A stretch of 64,000 bases of DNA from Blasia pusilla. Its lineage: Eukaryota. The DNA lies in the NCBI GenBank assembly GCA_050084515.1, contig CM114271.1, positions 46,624,001 through 46,688,000 on the forward strand, written 5' to 3'. The first letter of the stretch is position 1; each line of letters opens with the position of its first letter. Shown piece by piece: positions 13,331 to 58,338 of the stretch. The notes beneath the pieces were generated by a model. The model ran no database searches. It had not been told where the DNA came from and saw only the letters and a list, made by a program, of their open reading frames with translations. Position numbers and translations under genes: made by a program.

Positions 13331-13540
<210 letters not shown>

Positions 13541-24456: not shown

Positions 24457-27400
24457 ATATGAACCAAGTGTATCTACAGGAAGGAAATGCCTCACAAAAG
24501 CTATAGGATACCCTTATTATTGGCATATCTTACTTCGCCCCATTGGCTCAATGGCATCTTTGATCATATTCACTCTGTTCTTCCTTGAATTCGAAGAGAG
24601 CTTCATTGTTTCTTATTACAATATCATGATTCTCTTCTTCAAGAAGATCTGCTTCTTGATTTGAAGATAGGTAGTAGGTTAGAGATCTTCAATTGTCTTA
24701 TTTATAGAATTGCACATATTAGAAGAAACACCACCTAATATTTTCTATCAAACTTATCCATGCATGGATACACATCTATACTATTATGGGAGAGTACCCT
24801 CTTGCCCGTGCAAACACCTCTCCTTGAGCCACGTGGCGATTTTGGCTAATAAAAATTTGATTTTGGATAATCGTAGTTGTCTGCCAATCTAAGGGTTTTT
24901 TTGAGTGGGACATTTACAACCATCATAGTACTTCAAAACGGTTTTTTTGAACTTTTAAAATTTGTCATGGTGACAGTTATGATCGTAGTAAGGAGATCCA
25001 TCAATGGCAAGATCCTTTTTTTAAGCTTTTAAATTATGTCGTGCTAACCGTTATGATCGTGATAAGGTAGATCTGTTGATGACGAGGTGCTTTCCCTCCC
25101 AGAGTTGTGCAACGGTTTTTCAGGTTATCGTACTCACATCCGACTGTATTTATACCGTGCATTCAATGTAGACACTCATGACGTAGATACAATACGCACA
25201 TACTCACCCAGGTAACCATTTCCACCAACATTGCAAATTGATGTTCCCAGATGATTACAAGTTTTTGAGATGCTAGGCATATGATTGATGTACTCTAACA
25301 ACCTATCTGGTTTGTGAGCTACAACTTTCAAAGGAGTTTTCGAGTCTCCCAAAACTCACAGACTCAACGTTCCTCCACCCAAGAAGCTCGCAACTCGAGT
25401 CGCTAGGAGATCAGGCTGATTGTTCCCCTTCATATCTCCAACACTCCCATGTTGACGGTTCCTCTACATTCCCCTTCAGTTTCAATAGCACTCCCGATTC
25501 GACTTAGGTCCTCAGCATCTCCCAATTTGGAATAACTCCAGGTCCACCTCCAACTCCAGCTACGCTCTAGTTTAGTCGCCTTCTATTTGTTCGACCTATG
25601 CCAGCTCCACATTCTCTCTACAACCATGGCTTCCAACCCTTCCGATAACCAATCGAGCTACATACAAAAACATCAAAATGGCAACAAGGATAACTGCAAA
25701 GAAATCAACACATAGAAAGGGAAAGGGAAAGGCTCCATCCAAAACCACTCCATCAAAGAAATATTATGGTGTAAAGCCTGCTGATCTCAAACCTTGGGAG
25801 AGTGGAAAATAGTTTCCCATCTCTCAAGAAGACTGTGTTTGCCTGAGCATGTGGAAGAAGTCACACTTCAGAATTAGCCCACCTTTGGGGACGAGACTCA
25901 GCCCGGAGCATCCTCCAGACTTTGAAGGTGCAGTAAAGGACTCTCTCCTAGTGGGAGGAGGGCCTCCATTATAAAATAAAGGATATCTTCTTAACTCGGT
26001 TGAGGGGTTGGAAAAATAATTTCAAATCGAAGTCCAAGAAAGTCCCCAATGTTATGTAAGGGGCCCTGCAATTAAAGACCATGCACATTCCACGCAACAT
26101 CTGCAAAAAAAATTCTCAAAACACCTCATCCCAACGTTCAAGAACATTGCTCACCTTCTTAGAAGAGGTCGCCAATCCACATGAACGTGCCCATTAGCTC
26201 TACCCCACAAACCAATGGGACTAAAATAGTTCAGAAAGGGAAAAAAACATCAAGGTGTTATTATAAACATTGAGATTAGGATCTGACCAAACTAGGAGCC
26301 TAGGAGCTTCCCCATCTATAGATCGGAAAGAGTTAGAAAGATTGACTTGCATGTAACGCTTGGTACATGGAAATCAAAGCTTGGTTGGAAATGAAAACTT
26401 AGCTGAACATTACTTTGTCTGAATGTGTGGTTACTACATCAGCAACCCCCTCTCTCTCTCTCTATGTATAGAATTACTCTTCTCGAGTACTCCTGATATG
26501 AGCAACCATGGTCACCGCATTTCACCTACTGGCTCCTCTCGAGTACTCTAGCGACAAGCAATAAGGTTAGAATGTAGAGCACGGATGCGAAAACATGCAC
26601 AAGCTCGAGAGCATAAGGACACTAAGCCTTAAGTCCAAGCAGGAAAGGCGAGGAAACCTGCACGAAGTCTCAATGCTTTGTTGAGTACAAGCCCATGCCA
26701 CCCCCAAGCAATCGCAGTAACCTATGCCACGTGCAAGTAATTTCAGCAACCTTGACGAACAAACAGGAGCAGATTCCAAGGCGAGTACGTAGCAAGATGA
26801 GTCTTGAGCAAAGCCATAGCCAAGGAAGGACCAAGGGCGAGTGGGTGGGCGAGCGAGAAAAATCCTATAGCTAAAAAAGGACCGAGGGTGGGATGTTGAG
26901 AAAAATCACAGAGGATTGTCACATCTGGGTAGCCGATAGGCCGAGATTTATCGTGGATAGGGCGTAGAAGCCAGGGGACTATCTTGAGTGTAACTTTGTC
27001 CCACTGTGTCGGATGAGGTTGAGGATAGGTCCATTGTGTTAGGAACGTTGTTTCTGACAACTATCATGTTGCGGTCTTTCAAAACCGGGTGACTTGTTGA
27101 CCAGGTCATCCGCCCCTGGTAACCTGTGCGCGCAAGTTACCAGGGGGAGGGCTATTTTTAGGGGAAGAGCCTTTTGGCTCTTCCCAACCCTATATAAGAG
27201 AGGAAGATGGATTTCCTAAGCCATCTTTCTCATGTTGGGCCGTTGGAGCATCTCTCTTGTATGTGTGTGAGATAGGACTAGGGTGCTAGCATCCGGATTC
27301 CTTGATAGCACAGGGTGGACGAGGCTCGATATGCCGATCTAGATTGAGGAGTGGAGTTTTAGGCCGGGTGTGTCGTTCTTACTACTCTTTATTTTTACAT

Positions 27401-28543
27401 GGGAAAGTTGTCAAGGAGCTGGTGGGAATTTGTTGTTTGCAGGTAGGCAAGCGAGTTGCCTTGGTCGAGAGCTTCCGGAGACGCGTGTGTTGCGTGTGTT
27501 GGTCATTTTACTGTTCAGAAGGTCATGGGCGGAAGCGCTATCCGGTTTTCTCAGATTTTTGGCTGGTGCAGATTAACAGGGGACATCAGCTGAGTGTAGC
27601 AGGACGTATGGCGTCAGTTGTACACAAGTGAGGGTCGGAAAGAGGAGGAGGCGGTTGGAAACTAGGGCACGGACGGGCAGATGGCGACGCTGTGCCCCCC
27701 ACCCCCTTTTTTTGGACGTGGTTGGCGCCTACCACGCAACATGGTAACCGAGTCGGGCGTACGTGGTAGCAATCAAGGAGAGATGGTTGAGTTCAGACGG
27801 CGTTGAGTCAAGTTACATGCCGCGTGTGGGGATAAGCGGAGAAGTTTGCACGACATGATTTTCTCGGACGTGACGAGGATTTGCGAGAGTTGACGACGGA
27901 GTGTCAGTAAGTATGATGCCGACGGGTTGTCCGCATTTGTTGACAGGAGGATTGACGTATTGGTCGAGGAGAGTATTTTGTTGCGGACGTTGTCGTGTCA
28001 CATGGAGGAGTGCGTGTTGACGGTGCCGTAGGTTGGAGGGCGTGATCAGGTTACCCATTCGAGTCCCTTTTCCCGCACTTGTCGTGTGTGATTGAGAGTG
28101 TTGGGTATCGGGTAGTAGCAGGTGCGAGGTGGATGTAGTGATGGTGAGAGGTGCGGTAAGAGGAGAGGAAGAGAGGAAGATAGGAGAGAGGAAACTACCT
28201 TCAACCGAAATAGATACTTTTTTTTGAAGAGAGTTTCCGTCGGGTTGAAGAGAGGAAAATTTTTGTTTGAATTTTTTTGCACTTTTTTGTTCATATATTA
28301 AGCAGTCCCACAAATTTTTTTTCCTCTTCCATATTTTGGCAACCCCTCTGAGTCCGACGAGTTGCAAATTGCACAAAATTTAGAAAACTGAAAAATCAGT
28401 GGAATCATAAGTGTGGAACCAATCACTTTTTCCATCCAAGGTCTGGAAAAAATCTATCATTTGCCCAGGGCTGAATAGAGTTCAAGCTCAAAGTGAAGGT
28501 TGAGAAAAAAAAAAAGTACAATCTAAAACCTCATTTTGCATCC

Positions 28544-31500
28544 TCAAAGTGGTTTGTTTAAAATACTTCGAACTTCTTTGAGGGACAAAATTGGTTGGTG
28601 GATTCCTACTCCTACCTCCAACTCTCTTAAAACTACCAACAACACATAGTACATGTGCTTACAAGGGAAATACCTTTTGCCACTTGTCTCTCTTTGGACA
28701 AAGTCATCACATGAACATGTGGGAAAGCAACAGATGTGCACCACATACACCCCTGTGACACTTGAATTTACAGTGTTGTTCCTGACCCAATACATCCTTC
28801 CTATTCCATTGCCACTCAAGACATCTTTCGTGGCGATGATCTCCATTTTTGCCTCCCCAGTTGATGCAATTTGCTTTGCTCTCTCCACCGTTGGCCTGCA
28901 CATTCTGTTTCTATTCACTCCATTTCTAGACTCAAACAGAAATAATGGATTGAGATCATCCTCCTTCTCCGGGTACATGTTGACATCAATCTTGGGTTGA
29001 ATACAAAATGCGAAGGTCTCTGTAATGCGAACATGCTCCGAACTTCCCCCGTCTACGAGTTCCGGCACTTGTAAGATTGTCCACTTCGTCTTGAGTGCAG
29101 TTCATGCCTGCGGCGATGGGCCAAATCGTGGGGGTATTCCCGGGGAGCTCCAATGGCAGCCGGATAAGACTTCCGGAAAGCGCAAGATTCATTTGGGCAG
29201 AAGAAGTACTTCAATTGATGCCCGGTCCTCGTGAAACGATCAAAGGTTTTGAGTCCCCAAAACCCAGGCAATGGTCGTCCAGTCCTTGTACAGTTCTTAT
29301 TTAGGAAAGTGCCGCATGCTCTCCTAATGCCATCGATCCGCGCCTGCCAGGTGGGTCCACGCCCTGGGTTGCTCCGAGATATATGCCACCGTTTAGGTTG
29401 CAATCCACCTCCATTACCAGAATCCCATATTGTTGAACCACCCCAGTGACAAGATGTTGCGAACTTCCAGCAACGGAGGGCTTTTGACATAAAACATTCA
29501 CTGATTTTGGAGAAGTAACTCCATCACGGATTTGGGACGGGTCCGGGGTCCCCGAATACCTGGGCGGTGTAATTTCCTCATCCAAATCAATCACCGGATT
29601 CGTTCCTCGATCTTCGCCTCTTCACTTGCTCAAGTCAAGATACTTATCTGGTCTCCACGAGTCTCGTTCGGACTGCTCTACCACCATCTGTATGGGACAT
29701 CTTGAAACCCGCCCACGAATATCCCCACCTATGTGTACGTCTTGCTCGAGTGGAGTTCCAGCTACGCACCGGTTGAAGGCTTTGACATACAATTTTTCAT
29801 CACCAGATCTCACAGCCGCCCTGACATAGAGCTCGTAGATCAACGGCCCCTTTCCTTTTGTTATGCCTTTTGTGAGGAAGATATGGGATGCTGCAGACTA
29901 TAGTATTGCTCTTGCCTGGTCTTGTTGGCATGCCTCCACAAGTGAAATTCGTTGGCATGCTTGTGACGACCTCCAAGAGGAATGAACACTTTCTGCTCCA
30001 CTTGTGTTGGGGCAGAGGGCATTTTCATGAACGTTCAATCCCTGCAACGACGGCAATGTTAGAAGGGAACGAAAATAACTCTGGAGTCAAAGAAATAAGC
30101 GACCTGTTGGAACCAGATGGGTTGTAGGCCCGAGATATCCCATGAACGACTCTGCGACCCGTCGGGTCCCGACGTGTTGTAACCTTAAACCCACCTACTG
30201 CAACCCGTCGGAACCGGACGGGTTCCAAGGCCGAGGCATCCCATGAATGACTCTGTGACCCGTCGGGTCCCGACGGGTTGCACACTCGGGTTGCACCAAA
30301 CATCTGGATGCAACCCGTCGGTTTCCGTCAGGTTGCACCCTCGGGCAACCCGTTGGTTTCCGTCGGGTTACACACTCGGGCAACCCGTTGCATCCGACAG
30401 CTTGCTTGGTTTCTTGGGTTTGAAATCCATATAGTTCCCATGCTTCTCACCCTGAGCTACAACTTTACAAACAATTCTCAGCGTGAGCTTGACAAGACAA
30501 AATAGTGAACTCACCTGCCGCATGAAGTTTCCCCATTGTCTCATACGTAGAGTCTACCAACTCAACCAAGAGCACAACTCTTTGTACTTCCCCTCAATCG
30601 CATGCTTCCTCCACCACCCATGAAGTTCTTCCTGGCATTCCATGGCCTGCTTCAAGGTTTTGATGTCCTTGCAGCGTTGGAGTAGAGTGACATGCTCTGT
30701 CCTCTTATTCTCCTTGATGCAAGATTTGGTGTACCGGGTCACAGACTGTTGCCAATGGAAAGCATCCGACCTTTCCCTCTCCGGTTGAACCTCTCCACCC
30801 CAGAACACTTCCCGGATAGCAATCCACCCAGGTTGTGCATTGTCCGCCATGAACCCATAAATTTCCGGAGGTGGCCTTTTGTTTTCCTTCACCACCTCCA
30901 ATAAGAGTAACCAGCACATCTTCAAATTGCCAACGTCTTCTGCCTTTACTTCACAGACAAATATAATTTTGAGTCCCTTCTCCACATGGTCATAAACGTG
31001 AGCACCCATCGTCAACCATCCGTTCAACACTCAATAGCAAATATCAAACCTTACTCAACTCACGTAAAGATCTTCCCCTTCCCTCATTCGATCTATAAGA
31101 TCGAGGCCACTCGACGGACCTGTGGTTGACATTTTGAAGACATAGGCCCTGGATCCCTCGCCTCCTTGGCCCATGAACCGCCATCTCGAATGAACGGAAA
31201 TCTGGAGTTGGCCTTGATTCGGCGATGGCATCCATTTCGCCGTCTTTCCATCCGTAACTCGTATTTGACGCAAAGCAAATTCGGAAGCATTCAGGATCAG
31301 CGAGAAATGCGAGATTCTCCTGAGTTGTTTCTCCTCAACCGTAATCTCGCTTGTCCAGGGATTCCAAGCAATTTTTCACAAATTTGTGATGCCGTTGTGA
31401 GCTTGATCACTCCGGGCTTTGAACCCGGAGAGTTTGTGTAGACCTCGGCTACTTTCTTCGCCACATCCTCCTTGATGTGTCTTTGAATTGCATCGGTCAC

Positions 31501-32341
31501 AGGATGAGTGTGGGAGCCAACATGGAGTGCCAGCCTTGTATACTTTGACGTGGAGCCCAAGTCGTGGACAATGAAAAATATGTATGCAGGACACGCTCCA
31601 ACGCATAAGGGCGATGCCTGACAATGAGGATATCGATGGCCTCCAGGCGGTATGGTGGCACCGACCGCGTATGGAGTTTCTGCATTCTTGGGAGGGAATT
31701 GTGACGTATTGACTCGCCTGTTGCGCTCTAGATACGGGCATGCTGGACTTCTACACTCCAAGGCTCCCACGCATTGGCGGCGGGAGACAATCCAAGGACC
31801 ATCTGGAATTGAAGCACTGGTCCGTTGAAGCCTGCACCATCGATGATAATCGATTTTCGTCCCATACCCTTCAGCGCCCTCCATCCTTCTTTTGAGCAGG
31901 AGCAGCAAGTGGAGGCAACTCAAAAATGCAATTACCATCATACGTGGGCGGCAGCTCGTCGACAAGAATGCGCTTGAACATTTTCAAGGCCAGAGACGAA
32001 AGCAAACTATTGCCGGATACTCGCAAGAGGAACGAGTAGGCGGACAGAGGGCCCGACTGGTGTCCGACAGATCCACTGAGGTTGATAACATCCGGAATCT
32101 CTTCAGGAAGAACAACATTGTTACAAGCGTCGCGGTTGGAGTCGGCCGATCTGCAGAGCTTGGAGTTGCAAACGAGAGCTCGGAGCACTAGGAAATTCTA
32201 GACCGTCTACTTGGGAAACAGACGAATTCAAGGGCAGGCCGTAAACTCTGTATTGACCATTTGGTAGAGGTAGGAGATTCCATACTTTACGGTCTGAGGT
32301 CACTGGCTGGACCGTCTCACCTATTATGTCTTCCGTACCAT
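28544..32341 (-). pseudogene. MULE transposase: GCM/WRKY-like zinc finger, DDE core, SWIM finger; one intron; stops and frameshifts
   Basis: CVGALEC..C..C..C..HVGSHTHP (GCM-like); VRFDIC (D1); FMADNAQ..AIREVF..DAFHWQQSV (D2 + CxxH-like). Intron 30514-30042 joins NFMRQ|GLN..CPNTSGAESVHSSW (E). C-terminal CSCDDF..PCKHMYYV is a SWIM finger. Confidence 0.85.
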
Positions 32342-35300
32342 CCACCCTAACATCTTTGGATACAAAGATGGTTCCAATTTGGAGAAGAAATCAAGCATGT
32401 AAAAATTTTCATCCACTACTATGAAAGACTCACGAGCTTGGGGTCGAATGATTTCTGATTGAGGAAGGGCCTCGGATGATCGCCACAAGTGAGCTTAACA
32501 TAATTATCCATTCCAAGAAGATTCCAACGAGAGGAGACGAGAATGAGAATGAGAATGAGAATTTTTAATTTATAGTGAATAGGAAAAGATACACGACATG
32601 ATTTTTTACTGACAAGATGAATTCGGTGGATGACATTGTCTGACACAATGGATCCAATTCTGTAACACATTCAATTCTGTTGCAATATGTTACCGGATTT
32701 GGGAAGCAAAGGGTTGCGCATCACACTTCTATTCCGTCGGAGTCCTGGTAACTGAAAAATTACCCGAAGCTAACCGAAGCCTGCAACCCGTCGGCATCGG
32801 ACGGGTTGCACACTTCTGCTAAACATTGTCGAGGCGAGCAACCCGTCGCTCTCCGACGAGTTGCTCGGATACCGCTCCTTCTTGCCCGAAGATGCCGGAG
32901 GCGTGCAAACCGTCTGTTCCCGACGAGTTCCGCGGGTGCCTCACCTTTTTGCCCAAAGACGGCGAGGCGTGCAACCCGTCGCCCTCCAACGGGTTGCGCA
33001 AGGGCCTCGCCTTGTGGTGCAGCCAGCCGGACTCCGACGACTTGCACGGGAAGCCCTCGTTCTTAACCCTTGATGAGGGAAGCGTGCAACCCAACGGTCT
33101 CCGACGGATTGCCCAAGATACGTCCCGTTCCCGTCCCAAACACGGCGGAGGCGCGCAACATGTCGGTCTCCGACGGGTTGCGCGGGTACCTCGCGTTCTT
33201 TTCCGAAGACGACGGAGGCGCTCAACCCGTCGGTCTCCGACGGGTTGAGCATGCACGTGGCGACGTACCCAGGATGGCGGAGGCGCGCAACATGTCGGTC
33301 TCCGACGGGTTGCGCGGGTACCTCGCGTTCTTTTCCAAAGACGACGGAGGCGCTCAACCCGTCGGTCTCCGACGGGTTGCTCGCGACGCGGGTAACGCGT
33401 ACCCACGATGGCGGAGCCGCGCAACTGTCGGACTCGACGGGTTGCCATTTTTCACGTCCGGACTTCCGTAACATCCGGCACGTCGCCGTCGAAAAGACGA
33501 TGGGACCCAACGGTTAGCCCAACGGCTAGAAAAGTATAAATAAGGCAGAAATCGCTCATTTCCGGTTTCTCATTTTGCGATCTTCATTCCTCACTCTCCC
33601 GCGTAGCAGCTGATCAAATACGTAGGGGCATTTCACACGGCGACACATCGCGAGTCGATAGGAGGGAACAAGAGCGAGACTGTTCGACCGAACGACAGCG
33701 AGACGCTTCGACTGAGCGATCGCGGGACGATTCGAGCTACCCATCAAGGCGATTCGAGCTCCCCATCTCGACATCAGCAAGGCGACTGATCAAGGGATTC
33801 GTCGTGGACAGTGGAGGCATTTCCGGAAAAAATGACGAGGAAAAAGTCACAAGCCAACAAGTCTGGGAGCTTCATTCCGAAGTCCATTAGGACTCCTGCG
33901 TCAGCTTCTCCTGGGTTCGGCGAATGAAATTAGGCAGCAGGAAATCGAGGAGCGGGAAAGGGAAGCGGAGATGCACAACCAAGTGCTTCTTGCGAGACGT
34001 TTTCAAGAGGTGCTAGATAAACAGAACGCAGAGGCTGAGACGTCGCAGGCCTTGAAGAAAAGGATCGCCAACGAAAAGAGAGAAAAGAAGCGTCTCGACG
34101 CGTCGGTGAGGAGGGCAGAATTGGCTAAAGCGAGGAGGGAAAAAGCGATAGCCATTGAAGATAGCCCAACCCGTCCAACCGCAAGTGTTGAGATGCGGGA
34201 AATGTCCCCCACGAAGTCCGGGGACACAATCAACATAGTGGAAACGCCAGAAGTTGAAATCGATGACGACGAGGTCATGAGGACCGCCAGCGTGGAGATG
34301 GTGGACATGGCCGAAGAAGCCAAAGAGCGGTCATTCTTGACTCCAAGCCCGGCGGAGGACATCTACCTCTATCGGATCGACGAGTTCCCAGTTGATTTTC
34401 CAACTTCTGTCTCAGACAAGTTAGCTGGTCAAAAAACCGACCCCATTTTTGAGCGGGTAAGAGAGGATCTGGGTTTTTTGAATTATGTGAATTGCAATTT
34501 ATTGGGAATTCAGTGTAGCTTATTCATCTTGTCCCGGTTCTGACAGGTGGTAAAGCAGATGGCACTCATGGAGGGCCACAACGCCCCGAGGATTCCACTC
34601 TGCCAATTGCGGACAATGGAATACGTCCGCGAAATTCAGTCGGACGAGGACATCGCGAAGCTTAAACAATCGGCGGCGACAACATCCTACGTCGATAGCT
34701 TTCCTCCCTTCTATGTTCAGCCTTACGACGAGCATGGAACCCAAGCTCTGGTTACAGAGGAGGACTTGGAAAAGCTCGACACATTCTGGAGGATGCGAGA
34801 CCAGGATTTCGAAGGCAAGTTGAGGGCACGGAATTCATTTGGATGAGGAATCTACATTTCTTCATCCGGGATGGAAATCACAGAGTTCATGGCGTGGACC
34901 AAGTTTGCGGAGGAGCGGCCCAACTCATTGGAGGCACATTTTGCGTGAAGGCGGTGGTCCTTCACCCATTCCCTCATCACATGGCGACGGTGGAGATGGC
35001 AATGCATGCCATGAACACGTGAGTATCTTTAACATTTACGCAACTCGCCGGAGTCCGACGAGTTGCTTGATTGATGAATGGGTTAGGTTTGTTTTTGCGA
35101 AAGCAACTCGTCGGACTCACGGGTTGCTCGACCGCACGCTTTTTTGGATGTTTTTTAAGAATGCAACTTGTCGGACTCCGACGAGTTGTTTGATTGACCA
35201 CAGATTTAATTAGTTTTTGGCCCAAAGCAAACCGTCAGAGTCCGACGGGTTGCTCGACTCGCCGCCTTGTCAGGATGTTTTGAAGAATGCAACTCGTTGG

Positions 35301-38300
35301 ACTCGACGAGTTGTTATTGATCGACGCAGTTTAGAAGGTTTTTTCCCCAAAGCAACCCGTCGGAGTCCGACGGGTTGCTTGCCTCGAAACTGTTTTTGGC
35401 CGAAATCAACCCGTCAGAGTCCGACGGGTTGCTTTGGGATAAAAACCTTCTAAACCTGCAGTCAGTCGAACAACTCGTTGGAGTCCGACGAGTTGCATTC
35501 TTCAAAAAACATCCTGACATCCTGTTGTGAGTCGAGCAACCCGTCGGCCTCCGACGGTTTGCTTACCAGGCATTAGCAAATTTGAATGCAATCCGTCAGA
35601 CTCCGACGGGTTGCATCATTTAGCTCGTTGCTAGAATCCGACCTTGAGCTGTGACGACCCGTCGGAGTGCGACGGGTTGCATGAACCCATGTAATTTCCT
35701 GACGGGTTGAGTTTGGATGTGCAGGATTGTATCGGAGGGGAATGTCACCCACCACTGGATCCAGGACTGCGATCGGGTGAGGAAGGTGCTTACGACGCAC
35801 CCGGGAGAGTACAAGGGGTTCTTGGGCGATGCCCTTGTAAATCAGATGCTTGCAAAGGGTGCTCAGATTAAAAAGAAAACTTGGGCAAATAAGTTTATTT
35901 CCCAAGATGCAGCCATAACCATCCTTTTGCTGGTCGAAGATACAGGCCGAAAAGAAAAGCGCTCCACCGAGCTGGAGCGGAGGGAGAAGGTATCTGCGTC
36001 TGAGCGCGCCAAATTCATCCAAGCTGTAGTATCTGCAGCAACGAAATACATGGCGAGCAAGATGGAGCGATACATCAGCATTCTCAACCCCGAACTTGGT
36101 CCGGAGTTCTACAAGGAGCCAAGGCGATTATCAAGCGCCCGGTGAAAGGGATGAAGATCCGCGTGGTCGGATTGGGGAGAAAGTGTCCCGGATCGCGTGC
36201 ATCGGTTTGCGTTTCCGGCATAAGCGAGTTTAGGAGGATCCAAGCGATGAAAATCAGTCTCGAGGGCTCGTGAGGCTCGAGAAGAGGGCGGCACACCATC
36301 CCTGGTGTGTCCGATCCGATGATCTCGCACGGCTACGCGAATGGTTGTTCGGGGGCGCGTTGCGGGTTATCGTGAAGTCCGTCGGGGACGGTTTGCAAGC
36401 GGAGCTCGAAGATTAGAGCCCATCCGGATGAAGCAAACCTTGAAAGTTCGGAGATTTCGAGGTTTGGCTGACGACATCCGGACAAGCCAACCAAAACCCA
36501 GGATTCAAGACCATGTTCAAGGTTTGCGTCCTCCTCTCAGAGCTTGACGAAGAAGTAGAGGGGAACAAACGGGATCAAGCGAAGAAGAAGCGAGATCTAC
36601 AGGAGCAGACGGCCGATTCTATTCGACTAAAAGTCGCCCAAAGGATGGTCTTGTGTACCTCGTCAATGTAAGAATGCAGTGCGTGGGGAAAATAACCAGT
36701 AGCCTTGAAATTGTGGGCTTCGCCACGGATGCAGAGACATTCTCCATGTACGACATGGAGATGGGGCAAAGACATGTCCGATTGGGAGGTGGAGAATTGC
36801 CCCATTTGGCTCGACTTCAACGACCACTCAAGACATCACCGATAAGGATTTACGAGTGCTTCATGATACAAAGTGGCCTCACGACAAGACGACATCCCCA
36901 ATTTTGTCAAACCAAGACTTCTTGGAGGAGATGTAGAAGAGCAGCCCACGAGACAGGTGAGTTGGCTTCCAAGGTCCGCATGACCAAAGACAAATCCACG
37001 GCGGGTGTCAAAGGCAAGGCGAGGGGAGGGAAAATTCAGAGGCCGAGTCTTCCCAAAAGAGAGGTGAAGATTCAAGGCAGAGGCGGAATCGTCCCGGACG
37101 AGCGGGAGAGAGGGTCGGACCAGGTCCTCGGCGAAAAAAAAACCCCACCGAGTCCGAGGTCATAGAGACCCGACAAGCCGTCCGCAGACTAGGGAGAAGC
37201 GGCGAGAGGTGCGCGGGTTGTCCCAAGGAGAATCTGATCCATTATCCTCGGAAGACACAGACAAACAACGACCGGACAAGCGTCCTCCTTCGATTCACTT
37301 TTTCTTGGATAAGTCAAGAGCTTGATTCTCAAGCATCGACACCAGCCATCGGAAGCAAAAGCATGGACGGAAGCTCCAACGAAACGGCACGCTGCCTGGA
37401 CGGTGAATGGAGTGGTCGAAGAGGTTGCGGTGGATCTCTTGATCTCCGATCTGCCATCGGGGTTGCGACTTTGGGGCGAGAATCCGTCGGACGAGGTACG
37501 TAAGTGGAATGTGCCGCTCTCTTATGACCAGATTGCGCTTTTGTTCTCCTTTGCAGACGCCTATCTGAGTGAGAGGGGCTGCTTCTTGGTGTTGACTGGA
37601 GGGAGCGAGGACGAGCTCTTCAACCTCCAGTGCGTCAAGAGGTGGCTAAAGTGGAGGACGGCGCAATCGTGGATCATAAAAAACGAGTACCCACTCCGAT
37701 CCGCGACGAGTCAGATTCGGGTAAGGCTCAATTCATGTCCTATAATTTCAATTATATTTTAATGATGTGTATAATGAGTGTTCATCTCCGTTGAGTGAGT
37801 ATAATGAATGTCAATCTGGGTTTTTTTTGTCCGTGAGCAACCCGTCGGAAGGCGACGGGTTGCTGGCTTAGAGCAGCCCATGCTCGGCTGAGAGCAGCCC
37901 ATGCTCGGCTGAGAGCAACCCGTCGGCTTCCGACGGGTTGCATCTTTCCCACATACATAAGGAAAACCGCGTTGTACCTGCAATCCGTCGGAACCCGACG
38001 GGTTGCAGTTGCTTTTGGTTTTTCCCAGGTGCTTTTGGTTTTTGGATGCAACCCGTCTGATAGCGACGGGTTGCTCTCAGGCAAGCATGCCCTGCTCTAG
38101 GCCAGCAACCCGTCGCCTTCCGACGGGTTGCTCATGGACAAAAACAACGGGGCCCGACGGATTGTTTTAGTCCCTGACCAACCCGTCGGAAGGCGACGGG
38201 TTGGTCCGGGACAAAGCAACCCATCGGACTCTGACAGGTTGATCCAAAGTCAGTTATTGAAAATGTTCTCAAGCCGACTTCTTTAGTTTTTGACATTGTT

Positions 38301-39835
38301 TCCAACGTGCTGATTTACAGATGGACCACTCCTACGTGTACTGCTTCGTTCGGCCCGAGCACAATTTCCACGTGTTCAAGATCCAGGATCCTGTGGATTC
38401 ATGCTTAGATGGGTATAGCTTAGATAGTTTGTACAATTCCCCCCCGGGAATTTACATGCAAGACAGTACCCCACTTCTGGGAGGAAGGAAAAGTCGCCGA
38501 CCCGATGCAACGCTCATCGAGCTCGCTCAAGGCCGGGTGACTTGGTGTTCGACTTAGTGGGACTTTCAGGGGCAAGTATCAAAGGCGCCTGGCAAAGTGG
38601 CAGGAACATTCTCTGCCTCGAGGGAAGGCAGGAACTGTTTGACCTTTGCAAGGAGGAAAAGGAAGAATACGAAAGGCTCGTTGGGGCGTACAACTCTCCA
38701 CCAAAGCCGAGAGCTCCGGTTCCAGAGCCACCCTTGGTAGTGACTCCATCGTCACTTCCAACGATTCCAAAAATTGGGAGGGCAAGGCCGAAAGTAATTT
38801 TGCAAGAACTCTCAGACGATGACGAGTGAGTTCAAAGAACTCAACGACCCAGCTTGACTGCAGCGTTTGGAGTAGGGAGTTTTTTGATGATGAGGCAAAA
38901 GATTTCATAGAATAGATCAAATGTACACTTCCGAGCTTTTTTCGGATGATATAAAGCAGAAGATTTTTTCGAACGATGGTGGTGCTTGTAAAAGTTTGCT
39001 GAACATTTTTTGTCTTTTCGAATGTGATTGTCTATGTACTCCGCGGACTTCTATTTTTCAACCCGTCGGATTTCTCCTGCTTGCAACTTTTCACTTTTTG
39101 ACCACTGCACCCTTTTTACCACTTCGAGGCAACCTGTCTGATTCCGACAAGTTGCCTGATTGGACTCTTTCCCTGTTGGTCTAACTTAAGAGGCAGTCTG
39201 GTGGGCTTCTTCCCTTGGCACCTTCCCCTCAACTCGTAAAGGCAGGCGTAGGCTTCTTTTCTTCTCTCAGACGTTTTGGATTCCTACTACCTGTGCGATT
39301 GCCATAATGGTATTACCGGGGACGGAGCAGACATTGATAATGGATGGGTGTCACATTGCAGAGCGTACAAGGTATACTGCCGAGGAAGGCGGTGGGACTC
39401 GAAACAGGTTACATGGGACCGTTATGGTGTACCTAGGGGGGGGGCCAAGGCTCTCAAATTCGCCAACATTTTCGATCCCCGTCTACAATCGGCCTGAGGA
39501 GCCACTTGTATCCCAGGACATTCCTTTGGTATTGTCATCGAGGAGAGTTAGGAGTAAATTTGTAGATGACGAGGCTGAAGAAATCATAGACTAGGTGAAA
39601 TGTACATTTCCGAGGTTCCTTCGGAGGTAATAAAGGACGAGATTTTTTCAACCCATAATGGTGTTTGTAAAAGTTTGCTGGAATATTTTTTGGACTTGTG
39701 GATTGTGTTCTTTTAGCTACTCAGAATTACAATTCTGCAACCCGTATGATTCCGACGGGTTGCAACTTTTTGCTTTTTGCCCACTGCAACTTTTCTACCA
39801 TTTCCAGGCAACCTGTCGGATTCCGACAGGTTGAC
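30150..39835. repeat. Dispersed 25-bp palindrome CAACCCGTCGG-N3-CCGACGGGTTG, >30 degenerate copies
   Basis: Clusters at 30150-30410 (transposase intron), 32780-33450 (intergenic/promoter), 35040-35710 and 37840-38245 (introns of the accessory gene), and 39058-39835 (downstream). Confidence 0.93.
33833..38829 (+). pseudogene. MULE accessory gene: charged N-terminus, ParB/Srx-like motif, beta-class N4C/N6A DNA methyltransferase-like C-terminus; 3 introns; frameshifted
   Basis: GT-AG introns 34457-34546, 35019-35724 and 37721-38320 keep frame. FFIRDGNHR at 34858-34884; VDLLISDLPSG (37430-37462, DPPY-like motif IV); YLSERGCFLV; LIEL-SRPGDLVFDLVGLSGASIKGAWQSGRNILCLE (38512-38622, motif X/I-like). 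Confidence 0.7.
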
Positions 39836-42800
39836 TGCTTGAGTGATCGGACTCTATCCTGGTGAGACCAACTTCTGACGCATTGTGGCGGGCTTCTTGA
39901 CTTTTGGGTCGTTCCCCTACATTCGTCAAACCAGTTGTAGGCTTCTTTTCTTGTCTAAGATGTGCAGGATTCCTACTACCTGTCGGATTGCCATTTTGGA
40001 TTCCCAACCTGTTAGATCGTCGTGGGTGCAGGGTGGAAGAAAATCACTTCTAAAAATCTTTCCTTTCTTATGGTGAGCTTTCTTACGGGTTGGGAGGGGT
40101 GCAGCTTCTCGGTTTCTCAGCCTTAGGATCTGATGTGTTCACATTTCACAAAGTTGGTCTTGAGCAGACACCATTCATAACCAACAGAAAGTTGGTTATG
40201 GGGCAATTTAGGGGAGGCCATGATGCAGGCAACAATCCCTGCAAAAAGAGAGGTTGGCATCCGGGTGGTCCTCCAACAAAAATACCAAGGGCACTGATTT
40301 TTGTTGACCGAGACAGGGAATGTTAAGAAACTTAGGCTCACATGGAGAGTGATGGAAAAATGTTTAGGGTGGTCTTATGATGTCTCCTTTTTCTCGCCCC
40401 CAGGAAAGAGGAGGTTTTTTTAGGGCCAAATGTGGACCACTAAATACTCTCTTCTAAAGATTTCCTGAATTTGAAAGCAAACAAAAATTTCAAATATGTC
40501 AAAAAGTTTTGAAGAGAGGAGGCGGATTTGGCCCTTTTTTTTGAAGAGAGACTCTCCTCTCATCCTCTCTTCCTCTCCTCTCTTACTCTCTCCTGCCAGA
40601 ATACCAGCCCCCGTGATGGTGACGAGTGTAGACTCTTTTCATGTGTGGCATGTGGTGGATATACGGCGGTTTCTACGTAGAGGTTGCATGTATGACCCGA
40701 GAGTGTCGCTAGGTTAGGTGAGTCAGTTGGAAGGCTCATGGTGAGGCCGAGTGTTGAGTGTGCGTGAGGCCGGGTATGTCATCACAGGATTGATGTTAGC
40801 ATAGGTGAGCTAGTGAGGAGTGTGGGAGACTCTCGGTGAGTCTGAGTGCTTGAGCGGATGAGATAGGGTTTTCATCACTGCGTTCTTCTAGGGTTTGGAA
40901 GAACGGGGTAGTGCGAGGAGTAGTAGTGGTGTGACACGGACTGGAGTGAGATACCGAGGGATTACAAGTGAGGAGCTACCTCGACATCCATCCGTGGCTT
41001 GATCGTCATCACTAGACATCGGGTCTGGTGACAAGATCGCAGACGGAGGCAATATCACTTGGCAGGAGATGGACGACAAGGGCCATCGGGGCATGCGTCG
41101 TTTCTCAGGTACAGTGGGCACCATCGCCTTAGATGATTTTATCCACGAGTCCGACACGTGGTGCGACTTCCAGGAGATACGGACCCTGACACGGTTAAAC
41201 CCTTTATGGCATGGAAGGGGTTGTTCCAGCACTTGGAGGGTCCTCCAATGGATGACTACATGGAGTTTTGATCACTATATTCAGTAGAGATCAATGCCCG
41301 GAGGATGTATTGGGCTCCACGGTATGTGTCCAGTAGTGGTCGCGAGGCATATGATGGGATCGTGAGAGGAGAGAGACCCACACCATCAGGCCGGAGACTA
41401 GATGGAGAGGAGGGCAGTGAGATAGGTGATGTGGCAGAGACCTTTGGTGGTAGAGGGCCATCCAGCTTCAGCCCCACAGTGGAGTTCTTCCGACAGTTGG
41501 GGAAGAGCTACCAAGGCATACACACCGACAAGATGAAGAGTCTTCAAGATTTTCAGCGACAATCGGGTGAGAGAGGCATTCATGCGCATGAGGAGGCTAA
41601 TCATTGTTACGTATGGAGTGACTGAGGCGCAGTCAGTCCAGTATTGGTACGGGATTCTAGACGGAGAGCTACGGAGGAGAGTCCGAGATGCGGTGCTGAT
41701 TCACACAGCAAAGCCCACATTGAAGGTGGTCTTTGAGTTGTCTGAGCGTATTGAGCTCAACATGAGTGAGGAGCACGTAGTGACCGCTAGATTTTCTCGA
41801 GAGTCAACGGGTCCACGAGCAACGGTGACCCCACAGTTGCCACAGCGAGCACCAGTACCACGGGATTGGGCCAGTGTGCCCAGAGAGCAGGTCGGGTATC
41901 GTGAGCCTATGAGGCAACGACCCGTACCTACATATGTTGCCCAACACTGACCGATGTGGTCTTGTTGGACGTGTGGAGGGGCCCATAGGCAGAGAGACTG
42001 CCCACAGCATGGGAGAGGACCATGAGCGCCTCCGATTTCTCAAGAGCCACAGAGGATGGCCCCACCACAGCACTAGTGTGACTATTGCCACAGATATGAT
42101 CACACTAGGGATAGGTGTTTTGACCTTCGCCGAGAGGCACGTTCAGAGGTAGGCCGAGGATCTTGGGGCGGTCGTCCTAGAGGAGGTCAGGGAGTTCTTC
42201 CAAGACGTGGTGGTAGAGGATCACAACCAGCCAAAGGAGATGGAGCAGGAGCACCAGAGCCGTCACTTCTCTCACGCATCGATCAGTTGGAGCAGAGGAT
42301 TGTTGCCATGACGATGATGCAACTTAGGGAAGGCACAAAGCTGCGAGCAGCTAGTGTGACTCTAGCTTCTACCTCTTATCCTGACCTGGGTCAGGATCTC
42401 GCTAGTATGGGGTTTATGTGTAGTGCAGCCCAGGTTGAGGCAGCTACAGTGGTGACTCGGGGTGCTGCGAGAGGCATCGAGTCATTGAGAGGTGGAGTTG
42501 AGATTGATCCACCAGAGGGGATTGATGGGTGGCAGGCCAGGGTTCCACAGTCATTCATATTGTCGGAGGCACTACACACACCATCGATTGTGCCTCGATG
42601 ACTAGTGGTGCCTATAGCTCAGGTAGGTACGTCGACATCACGAGAAGTTGGAGTGACAACTCCTATGCCGACTCGAGTGGAGTCAGTGTCGACCATAGTG
42701 TTGGAGGTGGCCACCAGAGTGAGTGAGACTCCACTATTTTCCGCCATAAAGTTGGCGACGTTGGGAGTTGGACCAGCTGAGGTGTTCCGGCTGGCCGCCA

Positions 42801-43784
42801 CATTGTGTGAGCGTGGAGAGATGTATGCTTCTTGTTTAGGGGTAGTTGACGAGGTGGTGGACTTGCCTTGAGAATCGATGCTCAGAACGTTCCCCACAAA
42901 GTCATGGCATGCGGCGGCGGCGAAGTTGGTAGATATGCCAGGTTGACCGGCCACAGAGCGAGCAGTGGTGACACTTGGAGTAGTGTTATTGGATAACCAA
43001 GCTGGATTATTTTGCTTGGTTAGTCCCACGGGGACGGTATACCACCCGCAACGCATCCTACTTGATTTGGGAGCACAACCCTTGATGTTAGGGAAGGCGT
43101 CATCTTTAGGGTTGGGGTTACGGAAGGCCGACATTGAGCCTTGTCCCTTCCAGATACTGATCTCGATTGGGGGCGTGTCACCCACGTAGTATATGACTCG
43201 ACAGGAGATAGTTGTCAGAGTCCAGCCAGAGCATGCGACGGATAATGTTGTGGTGCGTACATGTGCGATTACCACACCAACTGAGTCGTACGATGTGTTG
43301 GTGGGGAGTATAGTGTTATATCCCCTAGGATTCATCCTTGTGGGAGGAGACCGTTGCTTATCGGCCAGGGTGGCAGTCAAGTGACGAGCGGAGGAGTCAG
43401 TTACCTATGCAGTTTGCGGGACAAGGTGGTCGATCACGAGGCGAGTGTGTGACCACGTTGGCAGCTTTCACAGGTAGTGTTAGCTGGCCAAAAGAGTTGT
43501 TGGAGGGGAACGCACATGCGGAGGATGTCCTAGTAGCGGATAGTCCCACGGAGAGAAAGGCCATGGTGGGTGTCTCTTCCCATGTTGGCGAGACCTCTTC
43601 ACCATTGTGGGGTACGACTCCGGAGCTACAGAGGAGTGCCGACGATCTCGTGAGGCAGGCGTGGAGTCATGCCTTTATCCCATAATAGCGCGAGTTAGGT
43701 GGTGATCAGGCTTCTGGAGTGAAGACGTTGACCCCACGGGATACCACACCTGTTGTGTGGTAGTGTCCAGAGGAGGGTGTTAGG

Positions 43785-44730
43785 GTGTTAGATCTCTTCG
43801 GATGGATTAGCAGCGGATTGGCTGCAGTATTGCTGGAGGGAATACGGGTGCATCAGTACGTTTATGTGGAGAAAGATGACACCGCGCCGCAAGTATCATT
43901 ACGTCACATGGCGAGATTGGTCCAGAGGTATCATGAGTTTTTGCCGGTATCTGCAGTACGGGGATATCAGCATACACTACCCGCCGACATCTCATTCGTG
44001 GGGGCGCAGGATCAGGATAGAGTTGGCACCATTCATTTGGTGATTGCTGGATGGCCATGTCAGGGTCATTCATCAGCAAGCCGAGGATTTGGATTGCAGG
44101 ATCCGAGATCAAGGATGTTTTGGGAGATGTTGCAAGTAGTACGACACTTGCATGAGAGTCAGACATGTTCTCCAACGTACATTTTGGAGAACGTGCCGTT
44201 GTTGGGAGACACTCGTGCACGTGTGATGACGAGTGTGCATCAGGTGAGGTCCTGGTTGGGACCTGCTGTGTTGTTAGATGCAGCGAGAGTTGGATCACGT
44301 GCCCATCGTCCACGACTATGGTGAACAAACTTTATACCATCAGAGGTATTAAGTCGAGCATACGATGGAGTCCGTAGAGCGCTACATCTCATAATATATG
44401 CTATTTTGGGCTTAGGGAGTCGATCTCAGGTGGTGACATGGGGATGATAGACCACCGTTGGCGATGGCCAATAGGGTGGGGAGTTGAGGGCAGCCTTACC
44501 TACGTTGGTGAGCTTCCCAGCATCCCATGCCTTTTGTGAGGGAGGGCCAGACATGATTTGGGATGAGGTGACCTGAGCATTGGAGGAGCCTACAGCAGAT
44601 GAGCGCGAGCACGCCATGGGGTCCGCTACCTGTACTATGGCGGTGCCAAGGATGACTAAGGCATCCCGGAGACAGATGTTGGGGCAGGCGATGGACCTCA
44701 ACTATCTCACATGGATAGTCAGCCTAGGTA
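43785..44730 (+). pseudogene. DNMT3-like C5 cytosine methyltransferase domain inside retroelement pol (copy 2)
   Basis: VLDLFGWISSG (I), YVEKD (II), ADI (III), LVIAGWPCQGHS (IV, catalytic PC), ILENV (VI), SRAHRPRLW*TN (VIII), EPTADEREHAMG (IX), RRQMLGQAM (X), in canonical unpermuted order. Confidence 0.92.
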
Positions 44731-45478: not shown

Positions 45479-48400
45479 CTTGATAAGCAACGGTCTCCTC
45501 CCAGAAGTCAAGGATGAATCCTAGGGGATATAACATTGTACTCCCCACCAACACATCGTACGACTCGGCTGATGTCGTAATCGCATGTGTGCGCACCATA
45601 GTACTATCCGTCGCATGCTCTGGCTGGACTCAGAGAACAATCTCCTCTCGAGTCATATACTGAGTGGGTGATACGCCCCCAATCGAGGTCTGTATCTGGA
45701 AGGGACAAGGCTCAATGTCGACCTTCCGTAATCCCAACGCTAAACACGCCGCCTTCCCTAACATCAAGGGTTGCGCTCCCGAATCAAGTAGGACGCGCTG
45801 CGGGTGGTATACTATCCTCGTCGGACTAACCAAGCAAAATACTCCAACTCGGTTATCCAGTAACACTACTCCAGGTGTCACCACTGCTCGCTCTATGGCC
45901 GGTCGAGCTGGCATATCTACCAACTTTGCCGCCGCCGCATGCCATGACTCTGTGGGGAACGTCCCAAGCACCGGCTCTGAGGGCAAGTCCACTACCTCCT
46001 CAACTACCTCTGAACAAGAAGCAATCATCTCTCAACGCTCACACAACGTGGCGGCCAACCGGAACACCTCAGCTGGTCCAACTCCCAACGTCGCCAACTC
46101 TATGGCGAAAAATAGCGGAGTCTGACTCACTCTGGTGGCCACCTCCAACACTATAGTCAACACTGACTCCACTTGAGCCGGCATAGGAGTTTTCACTCCA
46201 ACTCCTCGTGATGTCGACGTATGTGCGTGAACTGTAGGCACCGCTGGTCGTCGAGGCACCATCGATGGTGTGTGTAGTGCCTCCAACAATGTGAATGATT
46301 GTGGAACCCTGGCCTGCCGCCCATCGGTCCCCTCTGGTGGGTCAATCTCAACTCCACCTCTCGATGGCTCGGTGTCTCTTGCAGCATCCCGAGTCACCAC
46401 TGCAGCTGCCTCAACATGGGTTGCACTACACATGAATCCCATACTGGCGAGATCCTCACCCGGGTCAGGGTAAGAGGTAGAAGCTGGAGGCACATTAGCT
46501 GCTCGCAGCTCCATGCCTTCCCTAAGCTGCATCATCGTCATGGCACCAATCCTCTGCTCCAACTTATCGATGCGTGAGAGAAGTGTCGACTCTGGTGCTC
46601 CTGCTCCATATCCTCTGGCTGGTTGTGGCCCTCTACCACCACGTCCAGGAAGAACTCCCTGACCTCCTCCACGACGACCGCCCCCAGGCCCTCAGCCTAC
46701 CTCAGGACGTGCCCCTGGAGGTGCCCGTCGGCGAAGGTCAAAACATCTATCCCTAGTGTGACCATATCTGTGGCAATGGTCACACTGGTGCTGTGGTGGG
46801 GCCATCATCTGTGGCTCTTGAGCAATCGGAGGCGCTGGTGGTCCTCTCCCATGCTGTGGGCAGTCTCTTTGCCTTTGGGCCCCTCCACACGTCCAACAAG
46901 ACCACATCGGTCAATGCTGGGCAACATATGTAGGTGCGGGTCGTTGCCTCATAGGCTCACGGTACCCGCCCTGCTCTCTAGGCACACTGGCCCGCTCCGT
47001 GGGTATGGTGTGCTTTCGGGCACCTTTGTGGGATCACCGTCGCTTGTGGACCCGTCGACTCTCGAGAAAATCCAGCGGTCACTACCTGCTCCTCACTCAT
47101 GTTGAGCTCAATACGCTCAGACAACTCAAAGACCACCTTAAATGTGGGCTTCGCTGTGTGAATCAGCACCGCATCTCGGACTCTCCTCCGTAGTTCTCGG
47201 TCCAGAACCCCGTACCAATACTGGACTGACTGCGCCTCAGTCACTCCAAAGGTAGCAATGATTAGCCTCCTCATGCGTGTGAATGCCTCTCTCAGACTCT
47301 CACCCGATTGTCGCTGAAAATCTCAGAGACTCTTGACTTGTCGTCGTGCAGACGCTGGTAGCTCTTCCCCAACTGTCGGAATAACTCCACTGTGGGGCTG
47401 AAGCTAGGTGGCCCTCTACCACCAGAGGTCTCTGCCACATCGCCTGTCTCACTGCCCTCCTCTCCATCTAGTCTTCGGGCTGGGTCTCTCTCCTCTCACA
47501 ATCCCATCATATGCCTCGCGACCACTAGTGGACACATACCCTGAAGCCCAATACATCCTCCAAGCATCGATCTCTACTGAATATAGTGATCGAAACTCCA
47601 TGTAGTCATCCATCGGAGGACCCTCCAAGTGCTAGAACAACCCCTTCCATGCCATGAAAGGGTTGAACCATGTCGGGGTCCATATCTCCTGGAAGTTGCA
47701 CCATGTGTCGAACTCCTGGATAAAATCATCTAAGTCGATAGTCCCCACTGCACCCGAGAAACGACGCATGCCCCGATGCCCCATGTCGTCCATCTCCTGC
47801 CAAGTACTACTGTCTCTATCTGTGATCTCATCGCCAGACCCAATGACCTGTGATGACGATCCAATCACGGATGGATGTCGAGGGAGCTCCTCACTGGTAA
47901 CCCCTCCATATCTCACTCCACTCCGTGTCACACCACTACTACTGCTCGCACTACCCCGTTCTTCCAAACCCTGGAAGAACGCCGTGATGACAAACCTTGT
48001 CTCACCCGCTCAAGCACTCAGACTCACCGAGAGTCTCCCACACGCCTCACTAGCTCACCTATGCTAACATCAATCCCGTGATGACATACCCGGCCTCACG
48101 CCCTCCAACCTGCTGCACCGTCAATATGCACTCCTCCACATGATATGATAATTTCCGCAACACAACACTCCCCTCGATCAACACGGGGCGCGAATGGGCT
48201 CAACGCCTTGCCCCCTCAATATGCACTCCTCCATATGCGTGCCTACACAACACTCCCCCTAACCCTAGAGCGCTTGCGCCGACTTGACCCGGCGACCCTC
48301 GCCGCAAGCTCTAGCTCTTCTTCTCCTGGTACTCTGACCTTCCACGAGCTATAAGACGCGTTACTCCCGCCAACACAACTGCGCTACACCTGTTGCTTTG

Positions 48401-48985
48401 TCCCCATCAATCCCAGAAAATCTGAAAAAAATCTTGAAAAAAACACAAAACGTCGCCTCCGCCCACGGCCTTCCAAACAGAAAAATGACACACATCTTTC
48501 TCATGTTAAAATAAAGAGTAGTAAAAACGGCACTCCCGGCCTAAAACTCCACTCCTCAATCTACATCGGCATATCGAGCCTCGTCCACCCTGTGCTATCA
48601 AGGAATCCGGACACTAGCACCCTAGTCCTAGCTCACACACATACAAGGGAGGTGCTCCAACGGCCCAACATGAGAAAGATGGCTTAGGAAAGCCATCTTC
48701 CTCTCTTATATAGGGTTGAGAAGAGCCAAAAGGCTCTTCCCCTAAAAATAACCCTTCCCTTGGTAACCTGCGCGCACATGTTACCAGGGGCGGGTGACCT
48801 GGTCAACAAGTCACCCGGCTGTAAAAGACCTCAACATGAAAGTTGTCAGAAACGACGTTCCTGACACAATGGACCTATCCTCAACCTCATCCGACACCGT
48901 GGGACAAAGTTACACTCAAGATAGCTTGCTGGCTCCTACGCCTTATCCACGATGATCTCGACCTATCGGCTACTTAGATGTGACA
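45479..48985 (-). mobile_element. Inverted, truncated third copy of the same retroelement (5' repeat, gag, protease)
   Basis: 48985-48496 is the reverse complement of 26917-~27406. 48100-45482 is the reverse complement of ~40762-43362 (ORF 45630-46028 has LLDSGAQ; CDHCHRYGHTRDRC knuckle). Confidence 0.9.

Positions 48986-58142: not shown

Positions 58143-58338
<196 letters not shown>

Follow-up and report, generated by a model that had tools for sequence, protein, structure and literature searches.

A decayed Mutator-like element of Blasia pusilla whose accessory gene joins a ParB-like motif to a probably methyltransferase-derived domain

We analysed a 64,000-nucleotide stretch of the Blasia pusilla genome (assembly GCA_050084515.1, contig CM114271.1, positions 46,624,001 to 46,688,000 of the forward strand), hereafter the window, which has a guanine-plus-cytosine content of 46% and in whose positions all coordinates are given. 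The window contains a 12,465-bp insertion (28148-40612) with two divergent genes: the minus strand encodes a transposase, and the plus strand carries an accessory gene that shows a ParB-like motif followed by a stretch resembling DNA methyltransferases. The insertion is bordered on both sides by the 10-bp direct repeat GTGATGGTGA (left copy at 28138-28147, right copy at 40613-40622; no strand is assigned to the element or to either copy), a sequence that matches the window three times where 0.27 matches would be expected; the flanking copies account for two of the three. It sits in the leader of a retroelement of the long terminal repeat (LTR) type, and a second, inverted copy of this retroelement within the window preserves the same site without the insertion. 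The bounds of the element are given by this empty site, by the target-site duplication (TSD) and by a terminal inverted match, which is an imperfect, purine-rich pairing of 41-43 nt with a 17-nt offset at one tip and a score of 27 (200 shuffles gave 11.2 ± 1.9, with a maximum of 23). TSDs of Mutator-like elements (MULEs) usually measure 9-11 bp, a range into which the 10-bp repeat falls.

The transposase gene (28544-31983, minus strand), outlined from its open reading frames (ORFs), comprises several exons and a palindrome-filled intron near 30025-30450. Among its ORFs, Pfam indicated a SWIM zinc finger at an E-value of 0.011, under the Pfam cut-off, and gave no match to the MULE domain PF10551. 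In a language-model Atlas, the piece at 30554-31030 was closest to MULE (PF10551) clusters (best score 0.93; 25 of 30 matches), which we treat as a lead only. Because of the 10-bp duplication and these MULE-like transposase leads, the element is best labelled Mutator-like. An earlier note, made from the sequence alone, had placed the accessory gene inside a TSD-bounded MULE and opposite the transposase, and the TSD, the empty site and the minus-strand transposase ORFs bear this placement out.

The accessory gene (33832-38829, plus strand) was recognized as a chain of open frames of about 5 kb, with exons read from the frames at 33832-34456, 34547-35018, 35725-37720 and 38321-38829. Three GT..AG introns read from the sequence (34457-34546, 35019-35724 and 37721-38320, the last in phase 0) hold the frame open, while a further GT..AG pair at 37497-37556 was rejected as an intron, three relatives aligning straight across it. 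The copy in the window is a dead pseudogene. Indeed, ORFs and reads reveal at least seven frame breaks, of which one follows the start codon, one lies near 34830-34845, one each falls at 34884, 34938 and 38524, and two or more are located within 36142-37313; the frameshifts suspected in the earlier note are thus real. From its 5' end, the gene consists of the first exon, a putative ParB/Srx-like region (34547-35018) with an IRDGNHR motif and three of the frame breaks, a middle region of unassigned fold (35725-37312, read in frame 2, then 0, then 2 again) that is shared with a protein of the liverwort Riccia, and the two halves of a methyltransferase-like domain. The N-terminal half of this domain (37424-37720) extends from motif IV to approximately motif VIII and has the residues DLPS at 37448-37459. 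The C-terminal half (38321-38640) holds motifs VIII, X, I, II and III, with the motif I region at 38548-38577 and the break at 38524. The motifs listed in the earlier note were recovered in the order in which it gave them, that is, IRDGNHR (34864-34884), VDLLISDLPSG (37430-37462), the ERGCF stretch and RPGDLVFDLVGLSGAS...GRNILCLE (from 38530). The 3' end of the gene is also partly duplicated in tandem at 38880-39994 on the plus strand (38880-39305 versus 39559-39994, 76% identity), and an ORF within this duplication (39190-39594) closes with a similar acidic tail.

To place the methyltransferase-like domain, we compared its halves separately, using 37385-37726 as the N-half query and 38428-38826 as the C-half query. 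Among 177,635 PDB sequences, the best match of the C-half was M.RsrI, aligned at motif I with an E-value of 0.21 (six sequences at E ≤ 10). A tblastn search of 50,697 phage records with the same half returned 112 records led by DNA adenine methylases of lambdoid phages (E 0.03-0.06), and three of these top phage enzymes, when checked, carried PF01555 at approximately 1e-42. In a sample of 60 rows spread evenly over the phage ranking, 38 were DNA methylases or methyltransferases, two had another function (an exonuclease and a terminase) and 20 were unnamed; in plasmids, 18 of 23 rows were site-specific DNA methyltransferases and five were unannotated. Identity over the stretch of motifs X, I and II amounts to 35-45% across 40-70 residues when compared with phage PF01555 enzymes or M.RsrI, and to 34.7% across 49 residues for gp42 of Gordonia phage Kvothe. 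For the N-half, a profile built from four sequences found a DpnA-type adenine DNA methyltransferase as its top PDB match (E 0.24), covering DPPY and the hydrophobic strand that follows. Alignment of the N-half with three phage PF01555 enzymes by hhalign gave a P-value of 0.0043, pairing columns 14-73 with 27-84 in the register of motif IV. The two halves are collinear with these enzymes, the N-half aligning to residues 27-84 and the C-half to about 276-346, and the permuted beta-class order is present, with motif IV first and motifs X-I-II-III last. Since the N-half matches the start and the C-half the end of beta-class enzymes, in order, we consider it very probable, judging from sequence likeness, that the tail of the accessory protein descends remotely from a PF01555-type enzyme, i.e. 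a prokaryotic or phage N6-adenine/N4-cytosine methyltransferase of the beta class. In motif I, the window has DLVGLSGAS as against DFFMGSGAT or DPFGGSGSL in phage enzymes, a replacement of the first GxG glycine that is seen in one member only.

An exhaustive phmmer search with the N-half against 1.84 billion representatives identified three relatives: P0001, the hypothetical protein KAL3687003.1 of Riccia sorocarpa (488 residues, E 1.6e-12); P0002, the hypothetical protein KAL2653794.1 of Riccia fluitans (305 residues, E 2.4e-12), also a liverwort; and P0003, from a metagenome contig (104 residues, E 9e-4). No Pfam domain was found on any of the three. P0001 also matches the middle region of the accessory gene in other frames, its residues 23-47 corresponding to 36035-36109 and its residues 256-270 to 36774-36818 (E 0.009 and 2e-4 in a search of 2.1 kb). 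The C-half is known from the window only, because the gene models of all three relatives extend no farther than the intron dividing the methyltransferase-like domain. Two metagenome scans, one with the N-half alignment and one with P0003, added no further relatives; word-indexed protein searches returned only the query itself, and as they also missed P0001, they are insensitive for this family. At the position of motif IV, the window has DLPS, and the three relatives have DLPT, DLPK and DIPN. The earlier note had counted DLPS among the signs that this copy may be inactive; given that all four members carry D-[LI]-P-x and none has DPPY, the replacement instead characterizes the family. In amino-methyltransferases, the flipped base is stacked upon by the aromatic residue of motif IV.

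The ParB-like assignment concerns the region upstream. A DG.HR or G.RR-type motif following a strand is a hallmark of the ParB/Srx family, and in a six-frame translation of the window, comprising 127,996 codons, DG.HR occurs a single time, within the IRDGNHR at 34864-34884. Because this motif is unique, because it stands ahead of the methyltransferase-like domain and because there is published precedent for such an arrangement (see below), we consider it somewhat more probable than its absence that the N-terminal region has ParB/Srx identity. PF02195 was not found in four phage records.

We next turn to sequencing reads, for which two RNA and two DNA runs were aligned to 33600-39000 at a likeness of at least 88%. 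The DNA runs contributed 31,809 and 3,331 contig pieces to the gene region, and from these very large numbers it follows that the transposon family is high-copy. RNA reads numbered only 156 and 201 per run; none was at least 99% identical to the window and most were 90-95% identical, and they therefore come from other copies. Most had their first mate on the minus strand, an orientation that denotes plus-strand RNA in most stranded libraries. Related copies of the accessory gene are thus transcribed. At three of the break sites, reads carry a one-base difference that keeps the frame open: in the RNA runs X19 and X20, respectively, this applies to 1/1 and 2/2 of the reads listed at 34884, to 0/2 and 4/4 at 34938, and to 5/5 and 6/6 at 38524. 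In the DNA run X4, the same differences account for all of the depth at 34884 and 38524 and part of it at 34938, and in the DNA run X1 for a minority at each site. As to the claim that the gene is spliced, the part that stands is the set of three frame-keeping GT..AG introns, together with the last of them, where depth is zero at 37763-38305 in both RNA runs with the flanking exons covered. What does not stand is confirmation by junctions, as none of the 15 joints listed, out of 25, is a GT..AG splice junction, and RNA reads over 35048-35771, i.e. across the proposed intron 35019-35724, do not confirm that intron. A pile-up of 34-38 RNA reads per run over 35 bp (34606-34640), with unrelated sequence on both sides and the opposite mate orientation, is probably an abundant unrelated transcript that shares this short segment.

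The element is also rich in a palindrome with a consensus of 27 nt and arms of 13 nt. Searching for CAACCCGTCG-N5-CGACGGGTTG with at most three mismatches yielded 32 matches, all of them within 28340-39833 and none in the other ~51 kb of the window, with 0 expected. They form five arrays with a spacing of 52-78 bp. Eight palindromes lie between the two divergent genes (32784-33379, a 67-bp tandem unit in about five copies), a region whose single-strand folding has a z-score of -6.0, nine lie in the second intron of the accessory gene (35041-35679, a 125-bp tandem unit) and seven fill its intron at 37721-38320 on the plus strand. The remaining arrays are the one in the transposase intron (near 30025-30450, minus strand) and one near the 3' end (39738-39833); except where stated, the arrays have no assigned strand. 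Some changes in one arm are matched on the opposite arm, for example at 35041, 35471 and 39809. DNA joints that skip 187-329 bases within 35377-35707 indicate that array length varies among genomic copies.

The combination of a ParB-like and a methyltransferase domain on a transposon, as inferred in the earlier note, is less new than the note would suggest, since such passengers have already been published for giant transposons of brown, red and green algae. The available part of the Ectocarpus report describes Sola1-1_Ec32, an element of 21.5 kb in which a gene for a 1104-residue protein with a ParB-like and an N4C/N6A methyltransferase domain lies opposite the transposase (PMC12477816). The resemblance is considerable: a protein of about 1,100 residues encoded opposite the transposase of a DNA transposon larger than 10 kb, with the ParB-like domain preceding the N4C/N6A-type domain, for which binding and modification of the own element were proposed there (PMC12477816). 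As compared by description only, Sola1-1_Ec32 differs in belonging to the Sola1 superfamily and to a brown alga and in having domains that its authors could recognize (PMC12477816); in our gene, Pfam detects neither of the two domains, and D-[LI]-P-x takes the place of motif IV. Position, size and the methyltransferase part of our gene fit this algal type of accessory gene, and the ParB part does so at the motif level only. In red algae, as far as the accessible text of the Bostrychia preprint goes, Plavaka elements carry PAG2 (PF01555 plus SET) and PAG3 (ParB-like plus 2-oxoglutarate oxygenase), with PAG homologues in Mutator elements of Chondrus; there, too, the ParB-like domain is weakly detectable (HHpred E 0.29), and tandem arrays of inverted repeats that adjoin the ParB-like gene were proposed to be binding sites (10.1101/2025.02.11.637652). 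These are likewise giant DNA transposons with a PF01555-type methylase and a ParB-like domain, but their domains occur in separate proteins with other partners, whereas the present gene encodes one protein in which no SET or oxygenase domain was seen (10.1101/2025.02.11.637652). No report of a ParB-methyltransferase fusion from a land plant or a MULE was found in a literature search that lay outside most subscription journals. What is new here is the lineage, the nearest relatives being liverwort proteins, and the replacement of the catalytic motif throughout the family.

Compared with phage and plasmid PF01555 enzymes (such as those of PY54, SfV and Kvothe) and with M.RsrI, the domain shares the permuted order IV...X-I-II but lacks DPPY, has an altered GxG and very little sequence between motif VIII and motif X, falls below the Pfam threshold and is embedded in an intron-containing eukaryotic gene for about 1,100 residues. 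Among eukaryotic host genes, bdelloid N4CMT is reportedly a prokaryotic-type amino-methyltransferase with TSPPY and proven N4-methylcytosine (4mC) activity. In the liverwort Marchantia, MpDN4MT1a and MpDN4MT1b are described, in the part of the report at hand, as host genes with a canonical TSPPY and proven 4mC activity (10.1101/2021.02.12.428880). Like MpDN4MT1 and N4CMT, our gene places a prokaryotic-type amino-methyltransferase domain in a eukaryotic genome, and its nearest family relatives are also from liverworts; unlike these host genes, it travels on a transposon and has a degenerate motif, again as compared by description only. A precedent for a methyltransferase domain judged inactive is provided by the DIRS1 retrotransposon, where, in the available portion of Iyer et al., substitutions at catalytic and substrate-binding positions led to a supposed role in binding or mimicry; the same work reports several eukaryotic acquisitions from phage ParB-terminase loci (PMC4738411). 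The DIRS1 domain differs in that it belongs to the PCIF1-like clade and forms part of a retrotransposon polyprotein (PMC4738411).

Taken together, we favour, with some reserve, the reading that the insertion is a decayed copy of a high-copy MULE family whose accessory protein combines a ParB-like region with a non-catalytic, methyltransferase-derived domain. The family would encode an accessory protein of about 1,100 residues, divergent from the transposase, with a ParB/Srx-type DGNHR head, a family-specific middle and a C-terminal domain derived from a beta-class methyltransferase. In this domain, (D/S/N)PP(Y/F/W) has changed to D-[LI]-P-x throughout the family, and the first glycine of the S-adenosylmethionine (SAM) loop is replaced in the sole C-half available. 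Because motif IV and GxG are both replaced, we infer that canonical catalysis has been lost, such that the domain would no longer methylate DNA amino groups in the canonical manner and its role would instead be to bind DNA or SAM. As ParB does with parS, the protein would probably target the element's own arrays of 27-nt palindromes, binding them through the putative ParB fold of the N-terminal region, and we further infer a role in marking the transposon or shielding it, for instance from silencing. VANC of the Arabidopsis VANDAL MULEs is an anti-silencing accessory protein that acts on repeated short motifs of its own element; the likeness to it is one of role only, with no known relation in sequence or domain. 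A bolder extension, which we regard as rather doubtful, is that a Mutator lineage of liverworts or streptophytes uses phage-derived, ParB-like recognition of its own palindromes together with a non-catalytic methyltransferase fold as a shield against silencing; jointly with that extension, and with no greater probability, the palindromes might act as a eukaryotic analogue of parS placed in a bidirectional promoter and in introns.

Several observations weigh against the favoured reading. No Pfam match to PF01555 was obtained on any piece of the window (E ≤ 1) or on the four N-half sequences (E ≤ 10), and all database E-values for the methyltransferase likeness are marginal (0.03-0.24); of the identification as an N4C/N6A methyltransferase, what holds is therefore the ordered match of both halves to beta-class enzymes, and what is lacking is recognition by Pfam and firm E-values. 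The N-half as a single sequence retrieved nothing relevant from the PDB or from phages, and its hhalign comparison with the compact Kvothe gp42 was not significant (P 0.38), the register being unchanged. As the C-half comes from a single broken copy, the motif I substitution is perhaps not family-wide. AlphaFold models were too poor to use, both for the N-half alignment (predicted local distance difference test score, pLDDT, of 44.6) and for the piece with motifs I-III by itself, which was modelled as nothing but helices (pLDDT 62.8); a complex prediction of three methyltransferase pieces scored 0.01, which is no evidence either way. For the ParB/Srx identity, which had been expected to show in profiles and structures, nothing was returned by any source, the motif itself being present: PF02195, the second Pfam family proposed as a check, had no match on the window pieces, the PDB gave no hit at all at E ≤ 10 for either piece, tblastn against phages and plasmids gave only unrelated rows (E 2-7), and the best Atlas score (0.83) was to immunoglobulin domains of NUP210, below the mark for recognition. 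These tests were weakened by the three frame breaks that cut the region (near 34830-34845, at 34884 and at 34938). Further, most of the depth in the DNA run X1 agrees with the frameshifted form of the window, the terminal inverted repeats (TIRs) of the element are short, purine-rich and imperfect, and the palindromes might just as well be foldback insertions or repeats bound by the transposase.

Would the likenesses to methyltransferases and ParB then be due to chance, and the gene an unrelated, lineage-specific transposon ORF? The silence of Pfam, E-values that all exceed 0.01, the P-value of 0.38 for Kvothe gp42 and the fact that no tool supports ParB would fit this explanation, which we nevertheless find improbable, as two separate halves each rank a beta-class DNA methyltransferase first among the PDB sequences, as 38 of 40 phage rows with a named function and 18 of 18 annotated plasmid rows are DNA methyltransferases, and as the halves match both ends of those enzymes in the correct order. 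The opposite possibility is that intact members are active N6-adenine/N4-cytosine DNA methyltransferases that mark their own transposon, with D-[LI]-P-x as a tolerated variant. The beta-class order is kept, the motif X/I/II stretches are well kept (RPGDLV.D...SGA..K.A...GR), and related copies are transcribed with frames open at the three break sites; moreover, the accessible Ectocarpus and red-algal texts propose a function of the same kind (PMC12477816; 10.1101/2025.02.11.637652). Against activity stand the absence of the second proline and of the aromatic residue of motif IV from all four members, the replaced first GxG glycine in the motif I of the window and the failure of the PF01555 model to recognize the domain, whereas the active liverwort enzyme MpDN4MT1, as described in the part of its report at hand, retains TSPPY (10.1101/2021.02.12.428880). 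On balance, we consider active enzymes unlikely.

The provenance of the gene and of the palindromes must be weighed as well. Capture of a host gene in the manner of Pack-MULEs, or nesting of a different element in the MULE, would be compatible with the weak TIRs of the element, yet the gene region is present at very high copy in the DNA runs, its introns share the element-specific palindrome with the transposase intron and the intergenic region, and inspection of its surroundings revealed no internal pair of TSDs or TIRs; of the alternatives discussed, this one strikes us as the least probable. Far closer to balance is the question of whether the palindrome arrays have anything to do with the accessory protein. 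They may be transposase-binding repeats or foldback insertions, similar to miniature inverted-repeat transposable elements, that have spread in the element and its introns, and we give this possibility only slightly less weight than its negation. It would account for the palindromes in the transposase intron and near both ends (28340 and 39738-39833), for an array length that varies between copies (the skips of 187-329 bases) and for the strong single-strand folding (z = -6.0). It accounts less well for the confinement of 32 out of 32 palindromes to the element and for the position of the largest regular array between the two divergent genes, and, according to the accessible text of the red-algal preprint, the inverted-repeat arrays of Plavaka also lie beside a ParB-like gene (10.1101/2025.02.11.637652).

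Should the favoured reading of a MULE family with a ParB-like, non-catalytic methyltransferase-derived accessory protein hold true in intact copies, passengers combining ParB-like and amino-methyltransferase domains, so far noticed in brown, red and green algae, would also occur in the lineage to which land plants belong, and nature would offer a variant in which the catalytic motif has been replaced across a family. The palindrome arrays would then be a candidate binding site, making the idea of a transposon that binds and marks itself testable. The case also bears on the origin of bacterial-type enzymes for 4mC and N6-methyladenine in eukaryotes. With the locus itself a dead pseudogene and the concept already published, its value lies in the family rather than in this copy.

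Two candidates for the bounds of the MULE were rejected in the surrounding retroelement. The 6-bp GCGTGA overlap at 28046/40762 is not its TSD, as the 10-bp repeat lies inside it; it probably marks the site where the other copy of the retroelement underwent a deletion at microhomology, and approximately 230 bp of retroelement leader beside the MULE (28046-28137 plus 40623-40761) are absent from that second copy. Nor can the 496-bp repeats at 26916 and 48986 be taken for its TIRs: lying in inverted orientation and 92% alike, they are TG..CA repeats of the retroelement. The LTR-type copies around the MULE comprise 26916-27411 (plus strand) and 48492-48986 (minus strand), as well as 40762-43362 versus 45482-48101. 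A retroelement ORF at 43764-44324 (plus strand) contains a C5 DNA methylase domain (PF00145, E 8e-8), which recalls KnitGypsy-Dnmt3 of Klebsormidium nitens, described in the available part of its report as a Gypsy element that bears a DNA methyltransferase and has a DIRS-like repeat layout (PMC5890265). Farther away, at 412-1660 (plus strand), a PHD finger (PF00628, E 8e-11) comes after the integrase core of a retroelement (rve, E 4e-12) and may be a targeting module that reads chromatin. Long (CA)n/(GT)n microsatellites at 13334-13547 and 58144-58358 are the source of many self-matches of the window.

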